Assembly: GCA_964347405.1 (NCBI GenBank)
Contig: CAYFYM010000069.1
Coordinates: forward strand, 1-36,294
Direction of reading: 5' to 3'
Length of the DNA stretch: 36,294 bases
From: an uncultured Candidatus Bathyarchaeia archaeon
GTDB lineage: Archaea > Thermoproteota > Bathyarchaeia > TCS64
The notes under the pieces were generated by a model. That model did no database searches and was not told the DNA's origin. It saw only the letters and a program-made list of their open reading frames with translations. The translations under genes were made by a program, and so were the position numbers. This document shows, one piece after another, positions 8,597-33,173 of this stretch. Every line of letters begins with the position of its first letter. Positions within the stretch are counted from its first letter, which is position 1.

Positions 8597-8616
8597 GATG
8601 GTAGCCCGGGAGGTGG
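8597..8616 (-). repeat. weak tRNA 3'-end-like fragment (GATGGTAGC...)
   Basis: GATGGTAGCCCGGGAGGTGG shares the TGGTAGC (reverse complement GCTACCA) head of the better-preserved copies. Very degenerate. Confidence 0.25.
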
Positions 8617-8676
8617 CTTGTCGTTTGTTCGTGCCACAAATTGTTTTGTAAGGATATTTGGTATTTTTTTTTGTGT

Positions 8677-10386
8677 TTATCCTATCCGTGTGATTCTTCC
8701 ATCCGCCGTTGGGCTTACGGGGCTGAACTCCTGGAGATAGTTGATGACGCTATCTGCTAGTGTTATTCCCAGGTCGCTGTAGTTTTCCCCCGTGGTCAAG
8801 ACCCAGTGCCCTGATCCCCCTTCCGCTATGAACTCACCCATGGCGACGGTGTAGACCTCGGCGTCTTCGAGGGGCTGGTCCCCCACGTACGCCTCTGTCA
8901 CCCGCTCGTCCACGGGAAGCGAAGGGTCGTAGGTGAACCTTATCCCCGCTACCTGAAGCCATCCCCCGTCTGCGTAGTACTCCAGCTCCCGCCTGATCTG
9001 CTCACCCGTGAACTCGGCGACGATGAGCGAGTTCTGGAAGGGCAACAGCTCGTGCACGTCCGCCCGCGTTATGTCTCCTGCGGGGAAGACCCTCTTCCAC
9101 CTGAAGCCGCCCGAGTTGTGCATGGCGATGTCCGCGGTCCGTGCCTGCCAGAGTATGGCGTCTGCGACCAGGTTCCCCGCGTTTGTGTCCTGTCCCCTGA
9201 GCGCCTCCGTCTCTGCGTCGAGGTCCACGAGGGTCGCCCCCACGACCTCGTTCATTATGGGGCCGTACTCGTCTATGTAGGGCTGCAGCGTCGTTGACAC
9301 GTCGGGGTCGTCGGGTACGTCAGCTGTGATGGGTATGAGCCGTCCGCTGTAACCTGTGACTATGTCGTTCTCTACGGTGACGTCTAGACGCCCCAGCACG
9401 AGGCCGTGGTTCCATGCCTGAACGATGATGGTTTCGTCCACGTACTCTGGCGAGTCTAGCCTGGTGTGGCTGTGCCCTCCAACGATGACGTCGATGCCGT
9501 CCGTGCTCTGCGCCAGAGCCACGTCGTTGCCGTAGCCTATGTGGGTGAGGGCGATGATGAGGTCCGAGTCGTCGTCGAGCCGCGGCAGCAACGCGGTGGC
9601 GGCCGTCGTTGAGTACTGGAACTCCAGCCCCTCGACGTTTTGTGGTCTCGCGGTGAACAAGCCCTGGTCGTCGAAGAGCCCAAGTATGGCCACGTCTACC
9701 CCGCCCACCTCCACGATGATGTACTGCTGGAGGTAGTCGGGGCATGAGCCTGAAGCGGTATCTATTATGTTTGCCCCGAGCCACGGGTACTCCGAGGCCG
9801 TGCACGCGTTTATCATGGGCTCCTGTCCGAAGTCGAACTCATGGTTTCCGACGCACATGGCGTCCAGGTCCGCGGCGTTGAGCGCCTCGACGGTGGGGAC
9901 GCCCATGTAGTAGTTGGTAAGTATGGTACCGTAGTTGCTGTCCCCTGCGTTGAGGAACAGCACGTTGGCCCCTGTCTCCCGCTCCTGGTTCACGAGGTAG
10001 GCTATCTTAGGTATTCCGCCTACCATGCCGTCTTGGGGTTCCTGGCTCTGGGCTCTCCCGTGCAGGTCGTTTATGTGGAATATGGTGATGTCCGTGGGTC
10101 CCTGGGGCTCTGTTTCTTCTTGTTGGGCGTCCAGTTGTTGTGTAAGTTGTTCTAGTTGTTCCATTAGTCGAGCTATCTCTTGTTGGAGTGCCTGTTGATC
10201 TCGTTCAAGTCGGGTGATCCGTGCCTCTTTCTCCTCTACAACGTCGCTTAGTTCCTGTATCTGCGCCTCGTATTGGGTGATGTCTGCCGTGTCTTGGCCT
10301 GTTAACGCGGCGTAGGTTCCTACACCGATGGCTGCACCCAGTAGAATGCCGATCGTGAAGAGGAGGAGTTTACGGGAATCAATCAT
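8677..10386 (-). CDS. membrane-anchored bifunctional metallophosphatase / 5'-nucleotidase (UshA-like) with N-terminal coiled coil
   Basis: 569-aa ORF with calcineurin-like motifs (HINDLHGR, NAGD, GNHEFD, GGHSH) and a C-terminal 5'-nucleotidase domain. N-terminal TM followed by a Q/E-rich heptad segment. Confidence 0.9.
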   Translation of the reverse strand: MIDSRKLLLFTIGILLGAAIGVGTYAALTGQDTADITQYEAQIQELSDVVEEKEARITRLERDQQALQQEIARLMEQLEQLTQQLDAQQEETEPQGPTDITIFHINDLHGRAQSQEPQDGMVGGIPKIAYLVNQERETGANVLFLNAGDSNYGTILTNYYMGVPTVEALNAADLDAMCVGNHEFDFGQEPMINACTASEYPWLGANIIDTASGSCPDYLQQYIIVEVGGVDVAILGLFDDQGLFTARPQNVEGLEFQYSTTAATALLPRLDDDSDLIIALTHIGYGNDVALAQSTDGIDVIVGGHSHTRLDSPEYVDETIIVQAWNHGLVLGRLDVTVENDIVTGYSGRLIPITADVPDDPDVSTTLQPYIDEYGPIMNEVVGATLVDLDAETEALRGQDTNAGNLVADAILWQARTADIAMHNSGGFRWKRVFPAGDITRADVHELLPFQNSLIVAEFTGEQIRRELEYYADGGWLQVAGIRFTYDPSLPVDERVTEAYVGDQPLEDAEVYTVAMGEFIAEGGSGHWVLTTGENYSDLGITLADSVINYLQEFSPVSPTADGRITRIG

Positions 10387-10518
10387 GGCTAATGAATCCC
10401 TCTTCTTCTATTTTGGGTTTCCCGGCGAAGAGTTCAAACACCGTTCTCAGTCCACTGGATCTATTTTACCGCAATATGAACCATCGACCCAAAAGAATCA
10501 GCTCAGACGTATCTCTGT

Positions 10519-11055
10519 CTAGAGGACTCGTATGATCGTTGAAGTCTCCTTGTCGATGTGGATGAGGTTGGTCTCCTTGTCAAGCGAGAAACTCATGAAC
10601 GAGATGCCCTCGGTCTTCATGCCGGGTATGACTTTGACGCCTTCACCGAAACACTTCTTCAAACCAGTTACGCCACCCGCACAGCATAGTGCAACTATCG
10701 CTTCAGCCCCTGAGCAGCGTTCCACCAGCTCGGGGGCCGTCCATTTAGGGCCTCCTCCGTATACCTCGCTGTCGCTTGTCATGTAGCATAACGAAGGCCA
10801 GATCTCGACTCTGACGCTCTTTCCCCCGCCTTCTAGGATTCCCTTGATCCTGTCCGCCTCGTTTAGGATGGCCAAAGGTGGCCTCGAGATGCCCCCCGTC
10901 TCCTCGTCGATCACAAGCCTCTGGACGGGCTCATCCTTCTCGTACGCTATGCTGTAGTTGGCACAGTACGGGCAACCCACTATTACCAATGATTCGAAAC
11001 CTTCTGCTTCTCTCTCTATGCTCGAGTCGGGGCGCAATACGGCGTGTGTTGGCAA
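10519..11055 (-). CDS. conserved Cys-rich protein of unknown function (paralog of 19807-20343)
   Basis: 178-aa ORF with the motifs IVGCPYCANYSIAYEKDEPVQ and ALCCAGGVTGLKK. Roughly three quarters identical by eye to the second copy. No family confidently recognised. Confidence 0.7.
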   Translation of the reverse strand: MPTHAVLRPDSSIEREAEGFESLVIVGCPYCANYSIAYEKDEPVQRLVIDEETGGISRPPLAILNEADRIKGILEGGGKSVRVEIWPSLCYMTSDSEVYGGGPKWTAPELVERCSGAEAIVALCCAGGVTGLKKCFGEGVKVIPGMKTEGISFMSFSLDKETNLIHIDKETSTIIRVL

Positions 11056-11139
11056 TTTTTCCTCGACCTTGTACGCTGGTGTTTATCGTCTCATTTTATC
11101 TTTAACACTTGTCATCATGGTCTAGAGTGAGACACGGTC

Positions 11140-11180
11140 GATGGTAGCGGGTAAGGCGGAGACTTGAGCCATAGACCCCC
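11140..11180 (-). repeat. degenerate tRNA 3'-end-like fragment
   Basis: GATGGTAGCGGGTAAGGCGGAGACTTGAGCCATAGACC has an acceptor/CCA-like head and a T-loop-like TTGAGCC. It does not fold as a tRNA. Confidence 0.35.
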
Positions 11181-12958: not shown

Positions 12959-13128
12959 GTACAGTCAATGCGATTACTTAGGTATTATCCCAGTGTTTAG
13001 AACAGTTGTTCAACCGATTAGAACACCAGGAAACACTTGCTACGCGGCTTCGTGTGTTCTCACTAAGAGGTTCAACGCTCCACAGCGCCTTTAAGATCAG
13101 CTGATTGAACGCTGGGGACGGTATCTTT

Positions 13129-13170
13129 GTAGCGGAGGAATTGAGCCACCGACCTTGGAGTATTGAGACC
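13129..13170 (-). repeat. degenerate tRNA 3'-half-like fragment
   Basis: GTAGCGGAGGAATTGAGCCACCGACCTTGGAGTATTGAGACC is collinear with the better copies (acceptor, T-arm, variable region, anticodon-arm remnant). Confidence 0.4.
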
Positions 13171-13222
13171 TTTCACTATGAGTAAAATGCACCTTAAATA
13201 TCCCTTATCTTCAACTCATCAC

Positions 13223-16507: not shown

Positions 16508-16559
16508 TGGTAGCGGGGAGGTAGATTTGGACTACCGACCTTGGGATTATGACCCCCAC
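16508..16559 (-). repeat. tRNA(CAU) 3'-half-like fragment (anticodon arm to CCA)
   Basis: The reverse complement reads GTGGGGGTCATAATCCCA (anticodon arm, CAU) AGGTC GGTAG-TCCAAAT-CTACC (T-arm) T-CCCCGCT-A-CCA. No D-arm or 5' acceptor strand lies upstream. Confidence 0.65.
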
Positions 16560-16850
16560 GGGCTTCATGTTTTATAATCATCATCGATAGTCACTGGACC
16601 AGGTAAGGTGCAGATTAAAGAGAACTAGGATTACAGATCAGGTCCGCGGGCATGTACTGTACTGCCCCGAATATGCCAAGACAGATACCCATCTAGGAAC
16701 GAGCCACAGTTCGTGGCGGAGGACCCGTTCGCCGAGATCTGATCTGTTGTGCATTTCTCCATCTTTATTCAATTCGGCTACTTTTTATTACACACAAAAA
16801 GTTATAGATGGATTATGAAGGTTTTGAGCGTATTTGGGTGAGGTGTAGGT

Positions 16851-18104
16851 ATGAGGCGTAGCGTTTGGCTCGCTGTTTTAGCTATTGTTGTTCTCGTTGG
16901 GGTTTCCGGTGTATTGAGGCAGCCGGACGAGGTCGGTTCCCCGGGGGACAACGTGGAGACCTTGGAGCCCCCGGAGGAGCCAGAGGAGCCCACTGAGAAC
17001 CCGGAGCCCCCCGGGGAGGTTCCGGAGGGGATTCTGGTGAACGAGATTCCTGTTGGGGCTGATTTAATCTTCGTGTCAATGAGGTACGTGCTGGATGATC
17101 TTGCGTGTCTGGACGAGGAGTACAGGCTCAAGGCTGACTGGCTGGGGGACGCGGAGTGTATAAAGCTTATCTACAGCGAGGATTTCAGCATCACATCTTC
17201 TCCCCGGCAGCTGTACACGCTTGACATTGAGACAGGTGAGGTGGTCCAGTTGACAAACGTGGGTCACGATTTCTCAAGCTCAAAACCCATCGACATGACC
17301 CGAATCATGGCTATTGGCGCTGAGGAGGACACGGATGGTGACGGGATAGTGGGCACGGGTGACGAGGTAAACGTCTACGTTGTCGATCTTGCGTCCAAGG
17401 AAATTGAGTGTCTCACAGATGGGCTGGGCTTGAGGGAGTTCAATAACCCTGACTACTCGCAGGCAAACGGGTTGATAGTGTTCTCCGCCCAGAGACAAGA
17501 GTTGTTCCACAACTACCTGTTCACGTTGAGTCTTGACGGGGAGCTCACACAGGTAACCGACGACGATGAGTACTTCGATTTTGATTGCTCGTGGTCAGAG
17601 GACGGGTCCATGATAGTATTCAACAGGCTACCCTCCCCGGAGTCTTCATCGTTGCTTCCATCGAAGGTATGGCTTATGGATGCGGATGGCTCGAACATGG
17701 TCCAGATCAGCGAGGGTGGTTCTAACCCTGACGACGAGGAGCCACTCTGGGGCATGCATCCTATCGGGCTCGACGCTGACCCCGATTTGAGCCCGGATAA
17801 CAGTCAGGTCGTGTTTTCCCGGCTCAGGACAGGGCTTGTGAACGAGCCCTTTGGCATCTACGATCTAGTGGTCCACGATATTGAGTCGGGTGAGGAGACG
17901 GTTCTTGACTCCAGTTACGCTAACATGGTCCCAGAGTGGAAGGGTCAGGGCATAGTGTTCGTCAGGCAGAAAAAAATAGGAGATAGGGCTGTTGACCTTA
18001 AGCAAAGCATCCACGTATACGTTGACGGTGAGTTCAGGGACCTTGAGCCTTATCCTTTCAACGTGTTCCCCATCGGGTCGAATGGGGCTAGTTGGATAGA
18101 GTAG
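16851..18104 (+). CDS. PD40/TolB-like beta-propeller repeat protein (paralog of 13933-15198)
   Basis: 417-aa ORF, collinear and roughly two-thirds identical by eye to the 421-aa protein, with the same TM plus PE-rich linker architecture. Confidence 0.8.
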   Translation: MRRSVWLAVLAIVVLVGVSGVLRQPDEVGSPGDNVETLEPPEEPEEPTENPEPPGEVPEGILVNEIPVGADLIFVSMRYVLDDLACLDEEYRLKADWLGDAECIKLIYSEDFSITSSPRQLYTLDIETGEVVQLTNVGHDFSSSKPIDMTRIMAIGAEEDTDGDGIVGTGDEVNVYVVDLASKEIECLTDGLGLREFNNPDYSQANGLIVFSAQRQELFHNYLFTLSLDGELTQVTDDDEYFDFDCSWSEDGSMIVFNRLPSPESSSLLPSKVWLMDADGSNMVQISEGGSNPDDEEPLWGMHPIGLDADPDLSPDNSQVVFSRLRTGLVNEPFGIYDLVVHDIESGEETVLDSSYANMVPEWKGQGIVFVRQKKIGDRAVDLKQSIHVYVDGEFRDLEPYPFNVFPIGSNGASWIE

Positions 18105-18111
18105 TTTTTTT
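18105..18111 (+). terminator. oligo-T (T7) tract directly after the stop codon
   Basis: TAG followed by TTTTTTT. Confidence 0.4.
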
Positions 18112-18263
18112 GCAGCGGTTACCACGTATAACGCGAAAAAATTACTCGATTTACGGGTCTATAGTACGTATTTGTACATTATTTAATCAGGTAAACCTGT
18201 TTTGGGGATAATATCGAATCAATAGCGAAAAGAAGCCTAACTGCTTATTTAGAGAGTTTAAGA

Positions 18264-18340
18264 TGGTAGCTGGGGTAGATTTGAACTATCGACCTTGGGG
18301 TCATGCGCCCCACGCGTTAACCAAGCGTCTCCTACGCGGC
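18264..18340 (-). repeat. tRNA-like pseudogene fragment (D-arm-like through CCA)
   Basis: The reverse complement has ACGC-TTGGTTAAC-GCGT (D-arm-like), GGGG-CGCATGA-CCCC (CAT loop but G at position 33), a T-arm with a mismatch, and CCAGCTACCA. No matching 5' acceptor strand. Confidence 0.55.
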
Positions 18341-19597: not shown

Positions 19598-19749
19598 GGT
19601 ACAATGTCCCTGTACCGGCAGATAATAGCTTCCTGTTTCACACGGGAATTGAGACCCTCATGACTAGCCACTGACACGCGAAAACCGTTATTACTACAGT
19701 AATAGCCACCGTAGACCGCTATAGGCTACCACCTTTACAACGACAAATT

Positions 19750-19795
19750 GTAGCGGAGGTAGATTTGAACTACCGACATTGGGAGTATTAGCCCA
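19750..19795 (-). repeat. tRNA 3'-half-like fragment
   Basis: GTAGCGGAGGTAGATTTGAACTACCGACATTGGGAGTATTAGCCC has an intact T-arm (GGTAG-TTCAAAT-CTACC), a shortened acceptor and a decayed anticodon arm. Confidence 0.55.
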
Positions 19796-20343: not shown

Positions 20344-20495
20344 TCTGTCCTCAACCCGGCGAACTGGTGTTCATCGTCCATTTTATGTTATAACCCTTTC
20401 CTCTGTGGCTCGTGTGAAAAACGGTAGATAGATGATAGGGAGGTTTGAACTGCTGGCGTGTAAACGGAAGCAATTCTATATATTAAAACAGGGGT

Positions 20496-21194: not shown

Positions 21195-21228
21195 CGCCGA
21201 GTCAGTGTTCTCAACCTAATACTTCAAA

Positions 21229-21247: not shown

Positions 21248-21252
21248 GGGAT

Positions 21253-21522: not shown

Positions 21523-21531
21523 GTAATTTAA

Positions 21532-23427: not shown

Positions 23428-23483
23428 CACTTCCCATTTTATTTTAATTATATTCAATCTCTCATGTGGCAAAGACTTCGAAT

Positions 23484-24872
23484 TCAGTTATCCCATGTGA
23501 GCCCGCAGTCGCTGAACTTCTTCTTTACCTCCTCGATGAGGGCCCCGTACTCGGCGCTGGGCCTGTGGCGCTGCAGGTCGTAGCACTCCGTGATGAGCTT
23601 CCCGGGCTCAGGCGTTGGGTTCTCCATGAGCCTCGTGATGATGGGCTTGAACATCTCGTAGACCTCGCCCCTCTTCAGGCCCGATGCGATGGCGGCGTCC
23701 GACGCCTCTATCATCAGCTCCGCGTCAGCGGGGGTCTGGCCACCGTTCATCCGGCTCCTGCTCACCCTGGGCACGTACAGGTTGGCGCCGTTCACCGTGG
23801 CCTCTATGCTTCTGAGCACCAGCTCCTCCAGGTGGCTCGCCGTGCATAGCTCCGAGACGGGTATGGGCCAGTGCATGGGTATGCCGTCGCTGTTCCTGAT
23901 GGTGGCCTGGTAGACCACGGAGCGGGCGTAGCTGATGGGGAACATGGCTCTCCTGCCGCCGCTTATGTGGGTGAAGTGCTCGACGCCGTTGTAGTAGAGG
24001 TTGTCCCTGTAGACGATCCAAGCGACTATGGTCTTCACGAGGCTCTCGATGATGGCGCCCTCGGGGCCCCCTGCGAAGCCCCCCGCTATGCCGAAGCTGC
24101 CGCTTATGCCGAAGTAGCCGCGGCTTTGAAGCACCAGCGCCGCCGTTATGAGGTCGTACTGCACCTTGACGTCGGGCAGCACCGACAGCAGCACCCCGTC
24201 CGTGGGCCTGAGCCCTGCCACGGGGTCTATGGTGGCTAGGAACGAGGACGCCGCCGTCGTGATGGGGTAGTAGACTATGGCGGCGCCTGGCCTCCCAGCC
24301 TTCCTGATGCCCTCCCTGAGCCAAGCCACCTGGCGCTGGGAGGCGTAGGCCTCGATGGGGTGGCCGTATATGTCGTAGCCTTCGATCTTGAGGAAGTTGA
24401 ATCCCTCCAGGAAGTCGAGCCTCGGTATGGCGGCGAAGTTCTGGACCACCAGATCCGCCAGGTCCTCGGTGAAGGGGGCGTGGTGGCCCGGGGAGACGTT
24501 CATGGGCTCCGTGCCCTCGATGCTGTGCTGCCTCCACGTCCTGGCGTCTTTCCCCTCCCCCATGGCCACCTCGCTCTGCATAGCGCCTATGGCCTCCTTT
24601 ACCTCCTCCTCGCTGAACCTGACGACGCGCTCCCTGTCCAGGCAGAGGCAGCCGTGGTTCACCACGAAGTCCACTGCGGCCTCCCACGCGGCGTCGGCGA
24701 GGCCGTCGTCCGTGTTGATCCACTCGGTGTGGTCGCTGGGGCACCTTATTTCATAGGTCTTGACCAGCTCGGAGATGTTTCTGAACAGAGCCATGTCCCA
24801 GTCCCTGGCGGCCATCTTGGGGCCGCCACGCATCCTGTCCGCGATCTCCAGTAGGCTGATCATGGGCCTCAC
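23484..24872 (-). CDS. MtmB (monomethylamine methyltransferase)-like protein, pyrrolysine-free, divergent paralog
   Basis: 462-aa uninterrupted ORF of the same length class as MtmB. It has AGRPG followed by AAIVYYP where Methanosarcina MtmB has ...GV-Pyl-GPE. It also has GGFAGGPEG and a C-terminal ECYDL...PSAEY...FSDCGL tail. Confidence 0.8.
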   Translation of the reverse strand: MRPMISLLEIADRMRGGPKMAARDWDMALFRNISELVKTYEIRCPSDHTEWINTDDGLADAAWEAAVDFVVNHGCLCLDRERVVRFSEEEVKEAIGAMQSEVAMGEGKDARTWRQHSIEGTEPMNVSPGHHAPFTEDLADLVVQNFAAIPRLDFLEGFNFLKIEGYDIYGHPIEAYASQRQVAWLREGIRKAGRPGAAIVYYPITTAASSFLATIDPVAGLRPTDGVLLSVLPDVKVQYDLITAALVLQSRGYFGISGSFGIAGGFAGGPEGAIIESLVKTIVAWIVYRDNLYYNGVEHFTHISGGRRAMFPISYARSVVYQATIRNSDGIPMHWPIPVSELCTASHLEELVLRSIEATVNGANLYVPRVSRSRMNGGQTPADAELMIEASDAAIASGLKRGEVYEMFKPIITRLMENPTPEPGKLITECYDLQRHRPSAEYGALIEEVKKKFSDCGLTWDN

Positions 24873-24939
24873 CCTTGCTGTGGGTTACGAGTAAGTTTAC
24901 ATATTCAGTTCAAACCTATTTTAAGTCTAGTGCATCGAA

Positions 24940-25593
24940 TTGAGTGAAGAAGGTATTCTGCAGGGGCTCTCCGAGGCCGTACTCAGCTTCGACGCCGACG
25001 CGACCGCCGAGGCGGCGAAGGCTGCGGTAGACGCCGGCGTGAACCCGGTGACCGCCATCGAGAAGGGCCTCGCGGTGGGTCTGCGGGAGATCGGGGACAA
25101 GTTTGAGGCCGGCGAGCTTTGGCTGCCCCACCTGGTGCTGGGGGCCGAGGCCATGGAGGCCGCCATCAAGGTGCTCGAGGCGCACATGCCTAGGTCCGAG
25201 CTTGAGAGCACCAGGGCGGGTACCGTGGTCATCGGCACCGTAGAAGGGGACATACACGATCTCGGGCTACGGATCGTGGCCTCCATGCTGAGGGCCAACG
25301 GGTTCACGGTCCACGACTTGGGATGCGACACCCCGAGCCTAAATTTCATCTCTAAGGCCAGGGAGGTGGACGCGGACATCATCGCCCTGTCCTCCCTCAT
25401 GACCACCACCATGCCCTTCATGAGGGACGTCATCGACGCCCTGAACTCGGCGGGCCTCAGGGAAAAGTACAAGGTCCTGGTGGGCGGTGGCCCAGTCACT
25501 AGAGAGTGGGCTCAGGCCATCGGGGCCGACGGCTACGGCAAGGACGCGGCCGAGGCCGTTAGGGTAGCCAAAGAGCTTCTGGCCGGGGGTTAA
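24940..25593 (+). CDS. B12-binding corrinoid protein (MtmC/MtbC/MttC-like)
   Basis: 217-aa ORF with a TTG start, an N-terminal helical cap domain and the DxHxxG motif (EGDIHDLGL), then SSLMTTT and GGG motifs of the cobalamin-binding Rossmann domain. Confidence 0.9.
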   Translation: MSEEGILQGLSEAVLSFDADATAEAAKAAVDAGVNPVTAIEKGLAVGLREIGDKFEAGELWLPHLVLGAEAMEAAIKVLEAHMPRSELESTRAGTVVIGTVEGDIHDLGLRIVASMLRANGFTVHDLGCDTPSLNFISKAREVDADIIALSSLMTTTMPFMRDVIDALNSAGLREKYKVLVGGGPVTREWAQAIGADGYGKDAAEAVRVAKELLAGG

Positions 25594-25598
25594 CCGGT

Positions 25599-27011
25599 GT
25601 GACCGCCCCCAGCCTGTGGGAGGTCCTCGACAGGGCCTGCAACACCGGCCCCGCGGTGCCGGCCAAGGACTTCGACATGAAGGTCTTCAGGGAGGCCCAG
25701 CGGCTCGTCAGGGACCACGACATCAGGTACGACCCTCAGACGCCCGTGTCCACTGACGACGGCCTCGCGGACGAGGTGTGGGAGGCTGGGCTGGAGCTCT
25801 TCGCGGAGGTGGGGGCGTACTGCATGAACTCCAACAGGGTCATCATGTTCACGGAGGAGGAGATCAGGGAGGGGCTCAGGGGCCTGCGGGGCGAGGCCAG
25901 CATAGGCGAGGGCCCCGAGCGGAGGGAGATAGGGCTTAGGGGCGTCGAGGACGGAAGCCCGCCCACGGTGCTCTGCGGCGGAGTCATCGAGAGCAACGTC
26001 CCGGAGGGGGAGCTCTTCGTGAAGCTCTACCAGAGCATCGCCCAGGAGCCGGCTATAGACGGGTTCTACGTGGGGCCGCCCCTCCAGTCCTCCGAGGGGA
26101 GGCTCGTGCGCTCGGGGACGCCCTTCGAGACGCATCTCGGCAGCTCCATGGCGTCCTGGGTGCGTGAGGCGACGAGGCGGGCGGGGCGGCCTGGCCTGCA
26201 CTTCGCGTCGGCGTGCACGGCCGCCATCGCCAACGTTGCCGCCAGCGACTCGGTAGAGGGCCTGAGGAGGAGCGACGGGATCGTGGCCACCATAATGCCC
26301 GAGCTCAAGACGGACTACGAGAACCTCAACAAGATCGTCTACTGCCACGACTACGGGTGCGTGAAGCACTTCTACAACGGCGGCATGATCGGCGGCTGGG
26401 CGGGGGGCCCGGAGGGGGCCCTGGTAGTCGCCATCGCCAACGCGATAATGGTGGCCATGGTCTACTGTCTGGGGGAGGGGGAGTCCTACAACGCGCTGGG
26501 GTACCTGCGGGCCTCGACGCCCAACTACAGCGCCTTCGTCACACGTCCCTGCGTCTGGGGGTCCTCGATAGGCAGCCAGGCCATATCCAGGAACTCCAGG
26601 GTAGTCAACACCGCGATAGCCATGACCAACGCGGGCCCGGGCACCGAGATGCAGTTCCAGGAGATCGTGTCGGCGCTCTGCGCGTCCATGCCTTGTGGAA
26701 GGGAGGGGCTGTCCGAGGGGGTGAGGCGGTTCAAGGTGAAGCCCCTCCTCGGCAGCGGCCTGGAGAACAGGTTCTGGTGCGAGGTGGGGCAGGCCATGTC
26801 GAGGGCGAGCCGAGAACTGGCGGGCCACATAGCCGAAGAGATGCTTTCTAGGTACGAGCACAGGATCACGCGTGACTCCGACGGAGGCCCCGTGGGGCAC
26901 ACTTTCGACGAGATATACGACTTGGAGACGCTTCAGCCCCGGCGGCGGTTCCTGGAGGTCTACGACGGGGTGAAGAGGGATCTGGAGGACCTGGGATTAG
27001 AGTTTAGGTGA
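25599..27011 (+). CDS. MtmB-like methyltransferase, pyrrolysine-free
   Basis: 470-aa ORF whose GTG start lies 5 nt after the corrinoid gene stop. YCMNSNRVIMFTEEEI, AGRPGLHFASAC and the C-terminal TFDEIYDLETLQP...VYDGVKRDLEDLGLEF closely parallel MtmB as I recall it (TFQECYDVKTVTP...VYDGARKKLEDLGLVF). No in-frame TAG. Confidence 0.85.
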   Translation: MTAPSLWEVLDRACNTGPAVPAKDFDMKVFREAQRLVRDHDIRYDPQTPVSTDDGLADEVWEAGLELFAEVGAYCMNSNRVIMFTEEEIREGLRGLRGEASIGEGPERREIGLRGVEDGSPPTVLCGGVIESNVPEGELFVKLYQSIAQEPAIDGFYVGPPLQSSEGRLVRSGTPFETHLGSSMASWVREATRRAGRPGLHFASACTAAIANVAASDSVEGLRRSDGIVATIMPELKTDYENLNKIVYCHDYGCVKHFYNGGMIGGWAGGPEGALVVAIANAIMVAMVYCLGEGESYNALGYLRASTPNYSAFVTRPCVWGSSIGSQAISRNSRVVNTAIAMTNAGPGTEMQFQEIVSALCASMPCGREGLSEGVRRFKVKPLLGSGLENRFWCEVGQAMSRASRELAGHIAEEMLSRYEHRITRDSDGGPVGHTFDEIYDLETLQPRRRFLEVYDGVKRDLEDLGLEFR

Positions 27012-27015
27012 TGGC

Positions 27016-28431
27016 TTGACTGCGCCGAGTTTCTGGGAGATACTGGACAGGGCCTGCAACTCTGGGCCCGAGACCCCTGTGAGGGACTTCGACATGAAGA
27101 TATTCAGGGAGGCCCAGCGGCTGGTGGAGGAGCACGGCATAGAGTACGACCCCGAGGTCTACGTGCCCAGCGACGATAGCTTGGCTGATGATGTCTGGGA
27201 GGCGGGGTTCGAGCTGTTCATCGAGCTGGGGGTGTACTGCATGAACTCCAGGCGCGTCATCATGTTCGAGGAGGACGAGGTGCGGACGGCCCTCAGGGAG
27301 GTGCGGGGCGAGGTGGAGATCGGTGAGGGCGGGGAGAGGAGGCTCGTCAGGAGGCGGGGGATCGAGGGGGAGAATCCCCCGGTCATCGTGGGCGGCGTCA
27401 TCGAGAGCGACATCGCGGAAGGCGAGAACTTCGTGAAACTCTACCAGGCCATAGCGCAGGAACCCCTCATCGACGGGCTGTACGTGGGGCCGCCGGTCCA
27501 CACCTCGGAGGGGTACACGCTGAGGATGGGGTCGCCGCTGGAGGTGCACCTGGGGCGGTGCATGGCGGCGTGGGCCCGGGAGGCCGTTAGGAGGGCCGGG
27601 AGGCCGGGGCTGCACTACGTCTCGGCGTGCCCCTCGGCCATCGCCGACATCGCCGGGTGTAACCCCGAGAACGGCACGCGGCCCTCGGACGGAATCATGA
27701 TCTCGGTCACCTCGGAGCTAAAGACCGACTACGAGGCCCTGGCGAAGGTGGCGTACGCGCTGGACTACGGCTGCGTCAAGGCCACCCACGGGGGCTCCAT
27801 CATAGGCGGCTGGGCGGGGGGCCCAGAGGGGACGGCCGTGGTCTCCATAGCGGACTTCCTGTGCGCCGCCATGGTGTACCACCACAGGGTGGGCCCCACC
27901 TACGGCGACCACGGGTTGACGAGGTGCCCCGGCCCAGTCCCCGTATCCAGCGTGAACCCCGGGATGTGGGGAACGGAGCTGACCGGGCAGGCCATAGCCC
28001 GGAACTACAGGGGCGTAAATGGCCGCTTCTTCCTGACGGCTGCGGGGCCGGGCACCGAGATGCAGCTCTGGGAGGTGGCCGCCTTGGGCATCGCGGCCCT
28101 TGCTTCTGGCCGCGACATGTTCTGCGGTGGGGGGATTAGAAGGTACAAGGTGAAGCCCATGCTGGGCAGCGCCCTGGAGAACAGGTTCCACGCACAGCTG
28201 GGCCACGCGGCCCTCGGCATCAGCCGCGTGGACGCCGACGAGCTTGTCAGACGGATCGTAGATAAGTATGTCGATAACGTGACAAAGAATGGTGGTCCAT
28301 GGGGCTACACGTTCCAGGAGATTCATAACACGAGGACTCTCTCGGTTAGGCCCGAGTTTCAGGCCGTTTACGACAAGGTCAAGAGGGAGTTGACGGACAT
28401 GGGGCTAGACTTCCAGTATGGACTCAGTTAA
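27016..28431 (+). CDS. MtmB-like methyltransferase, pyrrolysine-free (tandem paralog)
   Basis: 471-aa ORF whose TTG start lies 4 nt after the preceding stop. The N-terminus MTAPSFWEILDRACNSGP is nearly identical to the preceding gene. It has AGRPGLHYVSAC and no in-frame TAG. Confidence 0.85.
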   Translation: MTAPSFWEILDRACNSGPETPVRDFDMKIFREAQRLVEEHGIEYDPEVYVPSDDSLADDVWEAGFELFIELGVYCMNSRRVIMFEEDEVRTALREVRGEVEIGEGGERRLVRRRGIEGENPPVIVGGVIESDIAEGENFVKLYQAIAQEPLIDGLYVGPPVHTSEGYTLRMGSPLEVHLGRCMAAWAREAVRRAGRPGLHYVSACPSAIADIAGCNPENGTRPSDGIMISVTSELKTDYEALAKVAYALDYGCVKATHGGSIIGGWAGGPEGTAVVSIADFLCAAMVYHHRVGPTYGDHGLTRCPGPVPVSSVNPGMWGTELTGQAIARNYRGVNGRFFLTAAGPGTEMQLWEVAALGIAALASGRDMFCGGGIRRYKVKPMLGSALENRFHAQLGHAALGISRVDADELVRRIVDKYVDNVTKNGGPWGYTFQEIHNTRTLSVRPEFQAVYDKVKRELTDMGLDFQYGLS

Positions 28432-28460
28432 GTTGAGGTTCGTAGAAGTGGATTAGTTGT

Positions 28461-28487
28461 TAGCGGGGGGTAGATTTGAACTACCGC
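28461..28487 (-). repeat. tRNA T-arm plus acceptor fragment at the GC-rich/AT-rich boundary
   Basis: The reverse complement is GGTAG-TTCAAAT-CTACC-CCCCGCT-A, a perfect T-arm and 7-nt acceptor 3' strand. There is no anticodon arm. Confidence 0.6.
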
Positions 28488-28514
28488 CCTTGCATCTCAT
28501 ACAAATTTAGTGCA

Positions 28515-29018
28515 TCATTCAATCTCTATCTGACCTGTGTTGTCTAATCTTGCTACCAGCCATTCATAGTTTTTATTCTTGATTACTTTTTTCACTTGAG
28601 CCCTAAGTAAATTGATATTCTGATTTTCAATTTTTTTAGATAGAAACATAATATCACTGATTACGCCCCTGCTGTTCATGTCTTTGAATACCAAGAAGTC
28701 CACTGGGTTCAATATAGGTTTGATATCATATGGGTCTAGTTTCAACTTTCTGAGATCCGCTTTAATGGCTTTGCTAAAGACCTTTTGAGCCTCTTTTCTC
28801 CCTTTTTCTACTGCGGCCTCCCTTAATGCACTCTCTATCTTGTCGAATTCCTCCTCTTTTTTATCCATTTCCAGTGATCTATTCTCATAATCGTCCAGCC
28901 AAGTTTTCTCAACTATACCCTTAGATTTCAGTCTTAGATCAGAAACTCTTACTATTTCTCCACATTCTGGGCATACGCATAAAATCTTTCTGAATTCTTG
29001 AAATTCCTCGAACTCCAT
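28515..29018 (-). CDS. Hjc-related endonuclease-fold protein (PF10107/COG4741-like), probably catalytically degenerate
   Basis: 167-aa ORF with an N-terminal CVCPECG, a charged coiled coil, and a C-terminal NPVDFLVF...DIMFLSKK...LLRAQVKKVI that is collinear with its neighbour. The E-x-K position reads S-K-K. Confidence 0.6.
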   Translation of the reverse strand: MEFEEFQEFRKILCVCPECGEIVRVSDLRLKSKGIVEKTWLDDYENRSLEMDKKEEEFDKIESALREAAVEKGRKEAQKVFSKAIKADLRKLKLDPYDIKPILNPVDFLVFKDMNSRGVISDIMFLSKKIENQNINLLRAQVKKVIKNKNYEWLVARLDNTGQIEIE

Positions 29019-29494
29019 CAGAACACCTCGTAAAGAACTTTCTTATCCTGTACCGCATCTCGTACCTGTCTTTGATTCTTATTGAGCCGGGCGTTTCCGC
29101 TTTTTACTTCAATGAAGCTGATTGACTCTATTTTATTCTGGCAACATCCATTGAATGTCAATAGGTCTATGGGATTGCCCAAAAACCTGCAATCGGGAAT
29201 ATTCCACCTGAAATCGTCCATAGTTGGTAAAACTTTTTCCAAGATTTTACCAATGTTAACGGCGGTTGTAGTAATCGTTGCTCTTTCAGTAGCTAATTTC
29301 TTGCTTTTTTCTAGACCCTTTTCTCTTTGTCTAAGTTCTTCTTCGTATCTTTCCTGTACTTCCTTTACTTCAGGGGGGAATGGTTTTGTTCCGTCAAAGA
29401 GAAATACTTCCGATAGTTTAAATTCACCACCACACGGACATTCAGCGTACAGGTCTGAATTTTTTAACTTGTCAATAATGTCGCTAGTTTTCAT
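29018..29494 (-). CDS. endonuclease related to archaeal Holliday junction resolvase (PF10107/COG4741-like)
   Basis: 158-aa ORF with an N-terminal CPCGG, a coiled coil, and RFLGNPIDLLTFNG...ISFIEVKSGNARLNKNQRQVRDAV (a PD-(D/E)xK-type D...E-x-K core). Its stop overlaps the next start (TGATG). Confidence 0.7.
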   Translation of the reverse strand: MKTSDIIDKLKNSDLYAECPCGGEFKLSEVFLFDGTKPFPPEVKEVQERYEEELRQREKGLEKSKKLATERATITTTAVNIGKILEKVLPTMDDFRWNIPDCRFLGNPIDLLTFNGCCQNKIESISFIEVKSGNARLNKNQRQVRDAVQDKKVLYEVF

Positions 29495-29659
29495 AAAAAA
29501 TCTTTAATGAAAATTATATTTAAATATTATAATGCTTAATTCTATTTTCCATTAAATAAGAGATATTCCATAGTCACTTTCCTAATCGAGACGGCTGCTC
29601 CGGCTATATGGTACTCTTCCATATCGTTTGCCATAAGCTCATCTAGGAAGGCCTCTAAC

Positions 29660-31767: not shown

Positions 31768-31893
31768 AAAACATGGCCGGAGACAGTTGACGGGTTGATC
31801 ATTCCCCTCCTCAGCGGCAGTCTTCATTGAATTGGGTTTATGATTCCTCAGACTATAAGGTCTTGACAAGGTCCTCAGCTCGACGATAGATAG

Positions 31894-32118
31894 TGGTAGG
31901 GGGCGATTTGAACCACCGATTTTGGGTTTATTAACTCCCACAAACATCAAGACGCAGGTTCAAACCTAGAACAACTGACCCCGTAACCAGTAGAGTAACG
32001 AAACAAGGCTTAAAACTACAGATTTTATTCGCGTAATACCAAGTAACCCGACACAAGAAACAAAATTTTCCGAGATTACAACCTACTTGCAACAAACAAC
32101 GATGGTAGCGGGGGGTAG
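31894..32118. repeat. ~225-bp direct repeat, copy 1 (bounded by two tRNA-like fragments)
   Basis: Near-identical to 32945-33173. The left end, TGGTAGGGGGCGATTTGAACCACCGATTTTGGGTTTATTAACTCCCAC, is tRNA 3'-half-like. The right end, TGGTAGCGGGGGGTAG..., continues to 32134 as a perfect T-arm plus acceptor plus CCA. Confidence 0.85.
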
Positions 32119-32326
32119 ATTTGAACCACCGACCTAGCATTTCTAGTATGTATCAAGTTGTGCATTCGTCGTCAAAGGAAGCCGAAAGAAGGGAGCACGC
32201 TGGTATGACACTAACCGGAACATGAGAAGAAAGATTTTTTATAGAAAATTTATAAAACAAGATTAACACCCGAGTGTGATCGACACTGAAGAGGATCTAA
32301 ACTCTTCACACTTGCAAGGTGAGTCT

Positions 32327-32881
32327 ATGTCAAAGGTTCTCGTAATGAATGGAAGCCCCAGACCAAAGGGAAACACCGCCTATCTCATAGGAGAGCTCAG
32401 TAAAGTGCTCGTTGAAAAGGGGCACGACGTGGAGGTGCTGGACCTCAACGATCTGGATATCAAGCCGTGCCAAGGCTGTTTCTCGTGTTATCGCGGGTTT
32501 CCCCTTAGGTGTGTGCAGGACGACGCCATGAATTCACTGTACCCCATGGTTTTGGGGTCCGATGTGCTGGTTTTCGCTTCTCCCATCTACTGGTTTAACT
32601 ATTCTGCTCAGTTGAAACTTTTCGTCGATCGTCTGGTGGCGTTGCACGTGGAAGGTGGTCACGCGTTAGATGGGAGAAAGTTCGCCTCCATCTTCGTATA
32701 CGGTGATACGGACTCGGAGGCGTCCGGGGTCTTCACCGCCATGGAGTCCGTTGATCGGGTGGTTTCGTATTTTAAAGGCGTTTATCTGGGAATCGTTCAT
32801 GGTACAGGTGGAGACGATCTCACCGTCTCTGACAATGAGATGCTTCTTGATGAACTAGGAAAGCTGGCAGACAAGATATAG
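32327..32881 (+). CDS. iron-sulfur flavoprotein / NADPH-dependent FMN reductase family (flavodoxin fold)
   Basis: The ATG at 32327 is preceded by GGTGA. It has MSKVLVMNGSPRPKGNT and the compact Cys motif CQGCFSCYRGFPLRC (C-x2-C-x2-C-x7-C) typical of ISF proteins. Confidence 0.8.
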   Translation: MSKVLVMNGSPRPKGNTAYLIGELSKVLVEKGHDVEVLDLNDLDIKPCQGCFSCYRGFPLRCVQDDAMNSLYPMVLGSDVLVFASPIYWFNYSAQLKLFVDRLVALHVEGGHALDGRKFASIFVYGDTDSEASGVFTAMESVDRVVSYFKGVYLGIVHGTGGDDLTVSDNEMLLDELGKLADKI

Positions 32882-32944
32882 GCGTCTCGAAAACCACCTC
32901 TCCAGCTTTTGGTAAGTGTAAAACAGAAGGTAGACCCAGATAGC

Positions 32945-33173
32945 TGGTAGATGGAGTAGATTTGAACCACCGATTTTGGGTTTATTATCTCCCACAAACA
33001 TCAAGACACAGGTTCAAACCAAGAACAACTGACCCCGTAACCAGTAGAGTAACGAAACAAGGCATAAAACTACAGATTTTTTCGCCTAATACCAAGTAAC
33101 CCGACACAAGAAACAAAATTTTCCGAGATTACAACCTACTTGCAACAAAACCAGCGATGGTAGCGGGGGGTAG
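32945..33173. repeat. ~225-bp direct repeat, copy 2
   Basis: Collinear with 31894-32118, differing by about half a dozen substitutions and two small indels by eye. The terminal tRNA-like piece is truncated after TGGTAGCGGGGGGTAG. Confidence 0.85.

Follow-up and report, generated by a model that had tools for sequence, protein, structure and literature searches.

The window, which is the entire 36,294-nt contig of a Bathyarchaeia MAG, carries along its minus strand nine pieces that correspond to 3' parts of an archaeal initiator tRNA-Met (tRNA-iMet), with their 3' ends at 13127, 16508, 18264, 19748, 28458, 31894, 32103, 32945 and 33158, and three more (8599, 11142 and 20418) that are too short or decayed to be assigned alone. 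A T-arm motif, GGTAGTTCAAATCTACC, occurs seven times with three mismatches or fewer, in every instance on the minus strand, against 0.03 occurrences expected, and a profile search recovers eight strong copies on the same strand. When aligned to the archaeal initiator tRNA-Met sequence found in related contigs, the clear copies score 32–92, as against a null mean of 13.9 (sd 5.3) for random 101-nt windows. A preliminary description of this DNA had reported eleven same-orientation fragments, regarded as 3' remnants of a single tRNA(CAU) to which they should align better than random sequence does. The alignment bears out this identity and makes it more exact; the count holds for the nine clear copies but not for the pieces placed at 8597 (13/16 matches) and 11140, which alone lie within chance, and it lacked a twelfth, decayed copy. 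As had been described, no copy has the 5' half of the tRNA when aligned to tRNA-iMet, and neither ARAGORN nor Rfam finds a tRNA in the window. The CAT-bearing anticodon arm attributed to the fragments is present in those at 16508 and 18264 but in no other copy.

From left to right, the series opens with a weak acceptor-end-like piece on the minus strand (8599..8614; 13/16 to tRNA positions 65–78; score 16, inside the null), which lies 30 nt past the DUF4349 stop codon, with homology to relatives stopping at 8515; it is possibly the oldest scar, and is not significant alone. The same holds for the weak minus-strand piece at 11142..11176 (E=0.72), made up of an exact 10-nt match, CCCGCTACCA, and a degenerate T-arm-like stretch. 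The first clear fragment (13127..13170, minus strand; positions 31–76, 74% identity) is followed directly on its 3' side, and in frame, by an integrase N-terminal remnant of ~30 codons (..QLILKALWSVEPLSENT..) at 13030..13126 on the minus strand. Further along, the minus-strand fragment at 16508..16564 (positions 23–78, 93%), with an ATG at its 5' edge, terminates the PD40-propeller block (16565..18263; gene 16851-18104, plus strand), beyond which lie the minus-strand fragments at 18264..18322 (positions 19–78, 88%) and 19748..19794 (positions 31–76, 87%). The decayed minus-strand fragment at 20418..20455 retains T-loop and acceptor traces, and its syntenic counterpart in the closest relative, the contig L010 (7690-7722), is a clear fragment. 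The decayed copy adjoins a conserved 8-kb MtmB/corrinoid block (20456..28457) with a Met_synt_B12-like gene, three MtmB-like genes and a corrinoid protein, which is interrupted by a 2.28-kb CsoR/Cu-ATPase insertion.

To the right of this block, the minus-strand fragment at 28458..28492 (positions 44–78, 94%) is followed by a minus-strand block with two Endonuc_Holl (PF10107) genes, Holliday-junction-nuclease-like (28493..29540). The FMN-reductase block (32136..32944; gene 32276-32881, plus strand) is bracketed by two ~265-bp units of core, trailer and 'A-type' fragment that are 92–97% identical to each other. One comprises a diverged 'A type' fragment (31894..31941; positions 28–78, 78%), the 'trailer' (31942..32102, duplicated at 32996-33157) and the tRNA-iMet fragment that this trailer follows (32103..32135; positions 46–78, 97%); the other comprises the second A-type fragment (32945..32995; positions 28–78, 80%), the second trailer copy (32996..33157) and an acceptor-end core only (33158..33176; 16/16 identical to positions 63–78), all of these on the minus strand. 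This last core forms the junction between the trailer and an AT-rich block (GC 0.38) that encodes a P-type cation ATPase and reaches the contig end (33177..36294). The 5' limits of the fragments group at tRNA positions 19–31, 44–46 and 63. Their percent identities, read from right to left (100, 80, 97, 78, 94, decayed, 87, 88, 93, 74, weak, weak), are not monotonic, and the progressive leftward decay once suggested for them falls away; the AT-rich right end is confirmed, with GC of 0.38–0.49 at 28458-36294 versus 0.51–0.59 in the blocks further left.

The location of the copies in intergenic gaps and the intact T-arm hairpin of the best among them (5/5 pairs in 5/8 copies) might point to functional RNA elements, i.e., tRNA-like minihelices serving the processing, termination or stability of neighbouring transcripts, of which RNA processing had been raised at the outset. 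Such a role is highly improbable: the fragments keep to the minus strand whatever the orientation of the flanking genes, the older copies merely lose pairs (3/5 and 2/5) with compensatory change absent, the 5' acceptor strand is found in none, Rfam gives no match, and the fragment edges fall at indel boundaries between genomes. It is likewise very hard to credit that they constitute a dispersed repeat derived from a tRNA (MITE/SINE-like), or that assembly wrongly joined strains at a repeat they have in common. The fragments are indeed short repeats, and sequence depth reaches its maximum at the 32103 fragment in every metagenome; however, that maximum is due to genuine tRNA genes contributed by many members of the community, with loose ends that continue into the anticodon arm. 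Depth is even across the window, a second assembly of the same population (L078, 99.9% identical) has the identical order across 11.9 kb, and the shared repeats, at 33 nt or less, are below the assembly k-mer and read lengths. Against a dispersed repeat, and against the membership in a repeat or MITE family that had been considered earlier, no terminal inverted repeats bound the blocks, the copies are always at block boundaries, and the motif and profile searches find none in the 8.6 kb of left-hand backbone or on the plus strand.

The comparison with relatives, which are metagenome contigs throughout and mostly short, places these fragments in a wider architecture. In the related contigs the array begins at an intact tRNA-iMet with core genes on its 5' flank, while its 3' flank is a hypervariable run of 0.2–3.5 kb cargo blocks, each closed by a same-strand fragment. 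A metagenome scan yielded 120 loci. An intact tRNA of archaeal type is present in 49, and in 11 of those additional fragments on the same strand lie downstream of its 3' end; the 27 loci of the bacterial tRNA-fMet type have arrays in none (Fisher p=0.006), and mixed fragment orientation inside one of the metagenome loci was never seen. In 'lineage A', with a conserved 5' flank of Rpr2, a TP_methylase/DUF357 protein, a cytidylyltransferase and a CTP-dependent riboflavin kinase, homology between loci breaks off at the tRNA 3' end. HSP ends fall within 20 nt of a site in 449/945 cases, versus 11 expected. The cargo between fragments in L136, L114, L154, L103 and L083 includes GNAT, flavodoxin, PD40, PIN, MFS, a DUF2204 nucleotidyltransferase, AbiV and a catalase with rubrerythrin. 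Four contigs (L136, L165, L083 and L103) carry the intact tRNA at the array end predicted by fragment orientation, which upholds the earlier placement of the intact gene towards the right; for the window itself we infer this rightward position, since its contig lacks the intact tRNA. Taken together, there is good reason to regard the repeated tRNA pieces as genuine att-site scars of repeated integration at the initiator tRNA-Met gene, and the window is probably a portion of a hypervariable cargo-gene island extending from the tRNA-iMet 3' end in a Bathyarchaeia lineage.

The proposal that fragments mark the boundaries of variable DNA is supported by individual blocks. The PD40 block recurs in L136 (91% nucleotide identity, 1635 nt), where it directly adjoins the intact tRNA with 71 nt between the tRNA and the start of the homology, which stops at the fragment's last base in both. 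The Endonuc_Holl block with its fragment likewise adjoins the intact tRNA in L165 (81% over 1092 nt), its homology stopping within 3 nt of the fragment 3' end. Between the window and its closest relatives, the differences fall exactly at fragments 20418 and 28458: blastn homology with L010 begins at 20466, ~10 nt right of the decayed fragment, and L001 carries a fragment at the position equivalent to 28458, after the MtmB cluster. The 8-kb MtmB block, bounded by fragments on both sides, is common to L010 (86–91%) and L001 (67–78%), the DNA to its left being entirely different among the three. The ATPase block occurs in other sediment metagenomes at ~98% identity from 33177 onward only, without neighbouring window DNA. 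Finally, TIGR04076 precedes PD40 in the window, in contrast to PD40 ... TIGR04076 in L136. The block in mid-array, which other Bathyarchaeia have at 75–91% identity, the differing DNA to its left and the altered order in L136 suggest that insertion, loss or exchange occurs at internal fragments too; together with the non-monotonic identities they speak against the view that scars are simply older towards the left. More generally, as block order varies between genomes, either internal sites must serve repeatedly or blocks must be mobile with no integrase of their own. Two points count against an island built by integration: fragment-less indels in the region (the CsoR/Cu-ATPase insertion at 21199-23480 and an isochorismatase gene at 6725-7432), and the conservation of the 8-kb MtmB block in Bathyarchaeia without fragments nearby; that block may represent long-standing chromosomal DNA and not a cassette.

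These patterns lend some support to the cassette-like capture mobilised in trans that the preliminary description had entertained. On such a reading, the locus would be an integron-like platform of true cassettes that never carried an integrase, with circles cut between two tRNA-derived sites and re-inserted in trans at the tRNA or a fragment, the tRNA 3' part serving as both attI and attC. This is possible but doubtful. In its favour are the blocks without integrase trace directly beside the intact tRNA in L136 and L165, the differing order of the TIGR04076 and PD40 blocks, and the unequal divergence of blocks within one genome pair (L114 versus L154: MFS 92% identical, nucleotidyltransferase 71%). 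Circle re-insertion would also be expected to leave the FMN-reductase block between two copies of core, trailer and A-type fragment, and the first 92 nt of the trailer beside it (31942..32102) are ~90% identical to the DNA following the intact tRNA in L084. On the other side, the genes are distributed over both strands, attC-like hairpins are absent, no IntI-type gene adjoins the tRNA, the assembled contigs of the runs show no circle junction, and homologous recombination between the 30–50 nt repeats could equally shuffle blocks.

The integrases bear on the same question. A Bathyarchaeia tyrosine-integrase family (matching PF00589) appears to target tRNA-iMet, its ORF reading through the tRNA 3' part; it has >163 homologues, the named ones being 'Bathyarchaeota tyrosine recombinase'. 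A full-length integrase directly follows the intact tRNA, in frame with it, in L202 and L203; in L153 it follows a fragment, and in L201 its 3' part spans the contig start to a downstream fragment. In L153 and L202, the stretch from the site to the conserved N-terminal motif lacks a canonical start codon. The smallest element seen consists of an integrase and 3 small ORFs (~2.3 kb). Truncated remnants follow sites in L113, L103, L091, L085, L131 and at the window's 13127; the last scores E=3.5e-5 against a profile built from other loci only, and among 161 random control segments the one strong match (E=1.9e-6) overlaps the true integrase in L153, all others having E of at least 0.7. The claim that no block retains an integrase is thus correct for intact ORFs in the window but overlooked this remnant. 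Likewise, serial integration at one tRNA gains a candidate targeting integrase, but does not account for the changes at internal fragments. As remnants lie directly after some sites, at least some blocks derive from integrase-bearing elements, which goes against cassettes that never had one; conversely, the profile and motif search of ~106 kb of archaeal 3' flanks and arrays finds integrase only as short remnants, which favours them.

The preferred reading, repeated integration at tRNA-iMet, would proceed as follows. Small elements, whose tyrosine-integrase gene overlaps its own attachment site, a copied 3' part of the tRNA through which the ORF runs, would integrate into the tRNA 3' part by site-specific recombination; each integration would restore the tRNA from the element's copy, and the former 3' end, moved outward, would persist as a fragment on the same strand. 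The retained site core of this fragment might still serve when DNA is later inserted, excised or exchanged. Rapid loss of the integrase portion, perhaps since integration parts it from its start, would leave 0.2–3.5 kb cargo blocks with a fragment at the end of each. Such disabling is uncertain because the tRNA provides an in-frame GTG in one reading frame. Moreover, no window block keeps an integrase and only one of the 12 sites has a remnant, so that either a ~0.9 kb integrase was lost some ten times or blocks never had one; the integrase-less blocks beside intact tRNAs may correspondingly have arrived in trans or decayed in place.

Decay in place can be taken further, to the point where all blocks are remains of formerly complete elements integrated at the tRNA, with integrases deleted where they stood and genome differences arising by deletion or homologous exchange, with no site-specific activity at the fragments. 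We regard this, too, as a rather unlikely account of the whole array. The integrase remnants of varying length just after sites, the degradation of fragments (74–97% identity, three barely recognisable) and the GC of the left blocks, nearer that of the backbone, all speak for it, as does the same route known from bacterial CIMEs (PMC5704250) and Prochlorococcus islands. However, the PD40 blocks of L136 and the window would need to have undergone an identical integrase deletion and then acquired different neighbours on either side; repeats of 30–50 nt at 75–97% identity are poor substrates for homologous recombination; and block order is shuffled across several genomes.

Repeated integration at tRNA-iMet has clear parallels in known systems. 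In Islander-type tDNA islands, tyrosine integrases integrate in tandem at tRNA genes, re-use of one site giving arrays (PMC4383910; PMC6563490; PMC9897764); common to these and the Bathyarchaeia arrays are the tRNA 3' part as target, the regenerated gene, the displaced 3' fragment at the far end and growth through repeated use of one site. In contrast to the ~9–23 kb reported for archaeal integrations into tRNA genes (PMC9897764), the window packs 12 or more sites into 28 kb, with blocks measuring 0.2–3.5 kb, none with an integrase; the target is an initiator tRNA, and the same blocks are reordered in related genomes. The tycheposon islands of Prochlorococcus lie beside particular tRNA genes, with newcomers pushing older elements inward, scattered partial tRNAs, fragmented integrases and most genes outside functional elements (Hackl et al., bioRxiv 10.1101/2020.12.28.424599). 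The Bathyarchaeia arrays share the tRNA adjacency, partial tRNAs, integrase fragments, predominance of genes outside functional elements and niche-adaptive cargo (transporters, redox enzymes), and in the proposed mechanism the displacement of older elements by newcomers, but the likeness is one of island architecture: the host is archaeal, the Bathyarchaeia integrase overlaps the att site and is codirectional with the tRNA, whereas that of tycheposons faces inward at one end, and no replication module is seen in the Bathyarchaeia mini-elements.

The integrase itself recalls the SSV-type ('suicidal') archaeal integrases, which have the att site inside the integrase gene (PMC7253208; review PMC8371274). 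In both, the ORF reads through the att site and the part downstream of it directly follows the tRNA after integration, and the missing canonical start in L153 and L202 adds to the likeness, which is again architectural: by sequence the Bathyarchaeia integrase is matched only to PF00589, and a split of the gene into two pseudogenes at both ends of one element is putative here. Firmicutes CIMEs, which decay to an integrase-less element with flanking att sites and then undergo accretion (PMC5704250), are similar in having att-flanked blocks without integration genes, in tandem at a tRNA 3' end, with composite excision possible; the Bathyarchaeia blocks differ in being archaeal, far smaller and far more numerous, without a conjugative partner, and with putative mobilisation. 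Integrons offer a further parallel in the one-sided array of short cargo units, each closed by one-orientation copies of a recombination site, growing from a fixed site and common to genomes in different order; unlike integrons, no IntI-type gene adjoins the primary site, recombination sites consist of tRNA 3' fragments rather than attC hairpins, genes lie on both strands, and some units descend from integrase-carrying elements. Thus, while the general kind, tDNA islands of a tycheposon-like form, is already known, the lineage and the unusually cassette-like form are new, and for these Bathyarchaeia the island would be a fast-changing store of cargo genes.

The minus-strand fragments of the window, named here by the coordinate of their 3' end, are attachment-site (att-site) scars derived from one tRNA, the archaeal initiator tRNA-Met (tRNA-iMet), in keeping with the earlier suggestion that all of them are 3' parts of a single tRNA(CAU). 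Nine align to tRNA-iMet with 74–100% identity, all on the same strand, and the direct repeat of the 3' part at distal block ends that is a feature of tDNA islands is present. Fragments 16508 and 18264 cover positions 23–78 (93%) and 19–78 (88%) of the tRNA, ~19750 and ~13129 both cover positions 31–76 (87% and 74%, respectively), and the diverged A-type fragments 31894 and 32945 cover 28–78 (78–80%); the shorter ~28461, 32103 and 33158 cover 44–78 (94%), 46–78 (97%) and 63–78 (16/16). The pieces at 8597 and 11140, taken alone, do not rise above the null in this alignment, while a decayed copy at 20418–20455 is recognizable through a clear fragment at the same place in the closest relative, contig L010. 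The T-arm string GGTAGTTCAAATCTACC, allowing up to 3 mismatches, has seven matches in the window, all on the minus strand, versus 0.03 expected, and a profile built from the copies gives eight strong minus-strand matches, while the plus strand and the leftmost 8.6 kb yield no match of similar strength. Every copy is intergenic. A T-arm-like match on the plus strand at 29799–29817, inside a small signal-peptide ORF, was dismissed as chance. Neither ARAGORN, which reports no tRNA gene in the window, nor Rfam, which returns nothing there at gathering or permissive thresholds, contradicts the earlier statement that no intact tRNA is present; the orientation of the fragments would place the intact tRNA-iMet to the right, beyond the contig end.

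The identity of the parent tRNA emerges from metagenome contigs scanned with the best-kept 26 nt of the fragment. Most of the more than 120 loci so recovered match at the 3' end of an intact tRNA-Met(CAT), and viral contigs scanned for the fragment gave 0 matches. Two kinds of tRNA-Met(CAT) can be distinguished among these loci, namely a bacterial initiator (CGCGGGG...) and an archaeal form, AGCGGGGTAGGGCAGCCAGGTTAGCCCGTGGGGCTCATAACCCCAAGGTCGGTAGTTCAAATCTACCCCCCGCTACCA. The latter combines an A1:U72 pair with an anticodon stem containing three G:C pairs, the marks of an archaeal initiator, and it is with this form that the window copies agree. Moreover, loose contig ends in 4 metagenomes run from the 32103 fragment into CGGGCTCATAACCCGG, indicating that intact tRNAs with a 32103-type 3' end occur in the same communities. 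Bacterial initiator tRNA-fMet genes from the same metagenomes (L087, L095, L102, L104, L107, L119, L120, L147 and others) are identical to the archaeal tRNA-iMet over their last 33 nt.

The preliminary description had left room for the fragments being functional RNA elements, such as processing signals. This is unlikely: they keep to a single strand regardless of the direction of the genes, their T-stem pairs have simply been lost in older copies, and the 5' strand is missing. An origin from a MITE or another known repeat, which would have overturned the att-site reading, is likewise not borne out, as neither terminal inverted repeats nor target-site duplications are found; these absent inverted repeats and the lack of dispersed or plus-strand copies exclude both a MITE and a tRNA-derived SINE. 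Misassembly can be excluded, since depth is even, contigs run across the fragments and a second assembly agrees. As att-site scars, the fragments fall into three classes by their 5' limits, i.e., tRNA positions 19–31, 44–46 and 63, which fits elements having attachment sites of different length; these classes would be the anticodon-loop, T-loop and 3'-end sublocations that Williams is said to have reported in 2002 as used by different integrase groups.

The window contig stops inside the array, and a regenerated intact tRNA at the proximal array end is seen in related loci (L136, L165, L083, L103, L082, L137 and L183). In the archaeal loci of what we term lineage A, the 5' flank of the tRNA is conserved, with genes for Rpr2, a TP_methylase/DUF357 protein, a cytidylyltransferase and a CTP-dependent riboflavin kinase; the 3' flank varies at nearly every locus, and blastn homology between loci ends at the last tRNA base. 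One to three additional same-strand fragments lie downstream of the tRNA 3' end at 11 of the 49 archaeal-type loci versus 0 of the 27 bacterial tRNA-fMet loci (Fisher p=0.006), and six fragment-only loci have 2–5 copies each; no locus mixes fragment orientations. Across all locus pairs, 945 homology-block ends were counted, of which 449 are no more than 20 nt away from the 3' end of a tRNA or fragment, versus ~11 expected from position alone, so that the synteny comparison proposed earlier came out in favor of differences between related genomes breaking at the fragments. Such presence/absence breaks at att sites are seen between the window and each of L136, L165, L010 and L001, and for the ATPase block (33177–36294) in other runs. 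In L114, taken from a 464-kb contig, the array ends 650 nt from the DUF4349 gene, which is the left-flank gene of the window. Homologues of the window's own DUF4349 protein, which place this whole contig of 36,294 nt in Bathyarchaeia, are undivided, at ~338 aa, and their alignment continues across the gap between the two ORFs (7532–7915 and 7925–8569) in which the gene of the window (7532–8569) appears; the split stems from a sequencing error or else from a frameshift or stop codon in this genome.

The same blocks turn up in other genomes and at other positions. The PD40 gene with its fragment (16508–18140) shares 91% identity over 1635 nt with a block that in L136 directly adjoins the intact tRNA. 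The homology of this PD40 block (16565–18263 in the window) stops at the last base of the fragment in both loci, and both fragments have the same junction to non-tRNA sequence, ACATGAAGCCCGTGGGG. The Endonuc_Holl pair with its fragment (28455–29540) has an 81%-identical counterpart in L165, again next to the intact tRNA. The TIGR04076 gene of the window recurs in the third block of L136, and thus block order differs between the two. Beyond the window, a fragment-bounded MFS block is common to L114, L154 and L084 (88–92%), and a nucleotidyltransferase block ending at a fragment to L001, L083, L114 and L154 (67–82%); the divergence of blocks within one genome pair varies widely. The AT-rich ATPase block recurs at ~98% identity in other sediment metagenomes, only from 33177 on, directly after the 16–19-nt core at 33158. 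The public runs mapped to the window are short assembler contigs, which are suited to showing shared parts rather than excision circles or deletions. Within them, a "skip" from 28492 to 32104 and one joint that "goes back" were rejected as rearrangements, being cross-matches from fragment to fragment or from trailer to trailer, i.e., between stretches of DNA directly following a site. Directly after several fragments, a stretch of ~90 nt is similar to the DNA that follows an intact tRNA elsewhere (16419–16507 versus L094; 18140–18263 versus L140 and L082). Some trailers contain TACCAAGTAAC or its reverse complement GTTACTTGGTA, a motif that may serve as an arm site for protein binding or as a promoter element.

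With L010, its closest relative, and L001, the window has in common the left flank to ~8515, 20466–21198 and the MtmB/corrinoid cluster at 23481–28418, with all else different. To the left of the shared Met_synt_B12-like gene, L010 has three minus-strand fragments, which enclose a quite different set of genes, and L001 has one fragment at the place of window fragment 28461, directly after the MtmB cluster. L078, another assembly of the same stretch from the same population, has the order of the window and the same end point. These comparisons speak against the proposal of the preliminary description that the older scars lie to the left: there is no strict right-to-left age order, because fragment identity does not change monotonically, the middle of the array is occupied by a conserved 8-kb block, the DNA on the left side of this block has turned over since the divergence of the window, L010 and L001, and block order differs between genomes. 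Therefore, either the fragments are still active as sites, or blocks without an integrase are mobile, or the array is reordered by homologous exchange between its fragments, three possibilities that the data do not separate.

The FMN-reductase gene (block 32136–32944) is bracketed by two units of ~265 bp that are 92–97% identical. Each combines an acceptor-end core with a trailer of 160 nt and an A-type fragment. Over its first 92 nt, the trailer shows ~90% identity to the DNA after the intact tRNA in L084. In the simplest history, a circle comprising core, trailer, A-fragment, FMN reductase and T-arm part would have been excised from an array and re-inserted at a tRNA having the same trailer, and the ATPase element would have integrated later by a crossover in the last 16 nt.

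A candidate enzyme for these integrations came from an iterated profile search of six-frame ORFs at every locus, which uncovered a family of tyrosine recombinases (PF00589) and so answered the call for integrases in flanking DNA: members lying next to an att site are found in L202, L203, L153 and L201. The integrase ORF runs through the tRNA 3' part (peptide VGSSNLPPAT) and then into a conserved motif, LWSIRNLSKNTQKTY, placing the att site inside the ORF; this read-through into the LWSIRNLSKN motif is seen in L153, L202, L203 and L113. In L202 and L203, a full-length integrase immediately follows the intact tRNA-iMet, in frame with it; in L153, the full-length copy comes after a fragment. L201 starts within the integrase gene, followed by three small ORFs and a fragment, and hence the element measures at least ~2.3 kb. 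Truncated remnants follow a tRNA or fragment in L113, L103, L091, L085 and L131. The earlier statement that no block retains an integrase holds for the ORFs of the window, none of which encodes one, but a single trace survives after fragment 13127, a remnant of ~30 codons running from 13126 down to ~13030 (E=3.5e-5 with a profile built without it); in random control segments, the sole significant match overlapped a true integrase. Homologues of the family number more than 163; where named, they are annotated [quoted passage not shown]. A 52%-identical member in L200 (9874–10861) adjoins tRNA-Pro(CGG) on the opposite strand, so that the family evidently changes targets, although this has no bearing on the present locus; it lies terminally in an element that also carries genes for a protein-primed family-B polymerase and Hjc-like and PD-(D/E)XK proteins, which suggests that these integrases serve also larger plasmid- or virus-like elements at other tRNAs. 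Classical integrases after the tRNA in L102, L107 and L147 were considered and rejected as the array enzyme, since they belong to the bacterial tRNA-fMet genes sharing the last 33 nt; they are phage-type and inward-facing, and no array accompanies them.

Among the loci, it is the C-terminal part of the integrase that follows the tRNA; the two halves were not seen together in any one element, nor was a free form recovered. In L153 and L202, the stretch from the att site to the conserved motif lacks ATG, GTG and TTG codons, which suggests that the gene would start upstream of the att site and lose its start on integration, as described for SSV-type integrases (PMC7253208). In both families the att site lies inside the ORF, the present one matching the general Pfam model PF00589. 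Several fragments start with ATG or GTG exactly where the tRNA similarity begins, e.g., ACATGAAGCCCGTGGGG (16556–16566, 13160–13172, 31939–31947 and 32993–33001, as well as the L136 fragment at 3938). These codons are in frame with one of the two frames of the integrase read-through and may represent 5' ends left behind when integrase genes were split; the intact tRNA itself has an in-frame GTG in one of the two frames.

The cargo is ordinary. In the window it includes a 5'-nucleotidase, an isochorismatase-like hydrolase, a GNAT protein, three PD40 propeller proteins, a methyltransferase, the TIGR04076 protein, CsoR with a copper ATPase, three MtmB-like methyltransferases with a corrinoid protein, two Endonuc_Holl proteins, a serine dehydratase, an FMN reductase and a P-type cation ATPase. 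Between the fragments of L136, L114, L154, L103 and L083 lie genes for GNAT, flavodoxin, AAA kinase, PD40, PIN, MFS, DUF2204 nucleotidyltransferase, AbiV and catalase with rubrerythrin and HxlR, and no integrase; the Pfam count over 99 array ORFs covers the 25 commonest families, and the statement on integrases stems from the iterated profile and motif search. The MtmB cluster (23484–28431), with three MtmB-family genes (all uninterrupted ORFs), a corrinoid protein and a Met_synt_B12-like gene, is conserved across many Bathyarchaeia (L010–L030). A tandem pair of zinc-ribbon and Endonuc_Holl (PF10107) genes occupies 28515–29494 of the window, within the block 28493–29540, and 4197–5176 of L165, where it forms a 1.5-kb block alone beside the intact tRNA; such a nuclease pair, moving by itself, could be a selfish or defense module. 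Two Cys-rich paralogues of 178 aa (10519–11055 and 19807–20343), 82% identical in nucleotides, each lie beside a fragment in separate blocks and have no match in Pfam, NCBIfam, PHROGs, PADLOC or PDB. For these paralogues, a 336-aa secreted repeat protein and the Endonuc_Holl pair, searches of PDB, PHROGs, NCBIfam and PADLOC were uninformative, and none of these proteins is recombinase-like; exact-protein look-ups for three window proteins gave no match.

Not all variation in the region is fragment-bounded, because in the conserved left flank (6725–7432) the window has the isochorismatase gene where its relatives L003 and L004 have a 154-aa ORF without a Pfam match, DUF3786 and CBS, and this replacement has no fragments. 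A 2.28-kb insertion at 21199–23480, encoding a CsoR-like repressor and a copper P-type ATPase (GC ~0.49), lies between two convergent conserved genes and has no counterpart in L010 or L001. Both junctions lack tRNA fragments and direct repeats, and a CsoR-operator-like palindrome, ATCCCCATGGGGGGGAT, lies at the left one; this gain took another route than the remaining island.

The general mechanism, in which tRNA genes serve as integration sites and the displaced 3' end is left as a repeat, is well known (PMC4383910, PMC9897764), as are arrays from the re-use of a site in archaea and bacteria (PMC6563490) and, in Firmicutes, CIMEs, integrase-less blocks flanked by att sites (PMC5704250). The nearest described phenomenon is that of the tycheposon islands of Prochlorococcus, where elements integrate at seven tRNA genes, older ones are pushed inward, and partial tRNAs and fragmented integrases lie among the cargo genes (bioRxiv 10.1101/2020.12.28.424599). 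A replication module, a tycheposon hallmark, is not seen in L201 or L202. Parallels might also be struck with integrons, but there the IntI gene and a cassette promoter stand beside the primary site, whereas here the tRNA 5' flank has the Rpr2, methylase, cytidylyltransferase and riboflavin kinase genes; attC sites are imperfect inverted repeats folding as hairpins, whereas these sites are tRNA 3' fragments, with no other conserved inverted repeat at block ends; and integron cassettes are mostly promoter-less and in a single orientation, whereas here genes lie on both strands within and between blocks. An integron-like capture platform on the initiator tRNA of Bathyarchaeia is a possible, though less likely than not, reading, in which any DNA between two tRNA-derived sites would be a cassette, cut out as a circle and re-inserted at the tRNA or any older fragment by an att-overlapping integrase acting in trans from a passing mini-element, with one- to three-gene units forming a shared shuffling pool throughout the lineage.

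The array is unusual in having at least 12 sites in 28 kb, in its small blocks, in the initiator tRNA as target, in an att-overlapping integrase co-directional with the tRNA, and in the clear evidence of the same blocks at different positions in different genomes. A limited search of the literature on Bathyarchaeia with integrase, tRNA or genomic islands, which does not prove absence, turned up no description of such an array. Bathyarchaeia are among the most abundant sediment archaea, barely cultured and with large flexible gene contents, and to our knowledge the routes by which they gain and lose genes are largely unknown. The present locus points to one concrete route: a single hot spot at the initiator tRNA, fed by very small elements with att-overlapping integrases, the residue of whose integrations is strings of cargo such as transporters, redox enzymes, propeller proteins and toxin-like and defense-like genes. 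Since the same blocks recur in other genomes and positions, the island may be seen as an exchange pool, and the fragments and the integrase family provide precise markers for delimiting flexible DNA in Bathyarchaeia MAGs. If blocks without an integrase do move, the island would be an archaeal, tRNA-based counterpart of integrons, and would offer a lineage without genetic tools a testable system of short attB, small integrase and small cargo.
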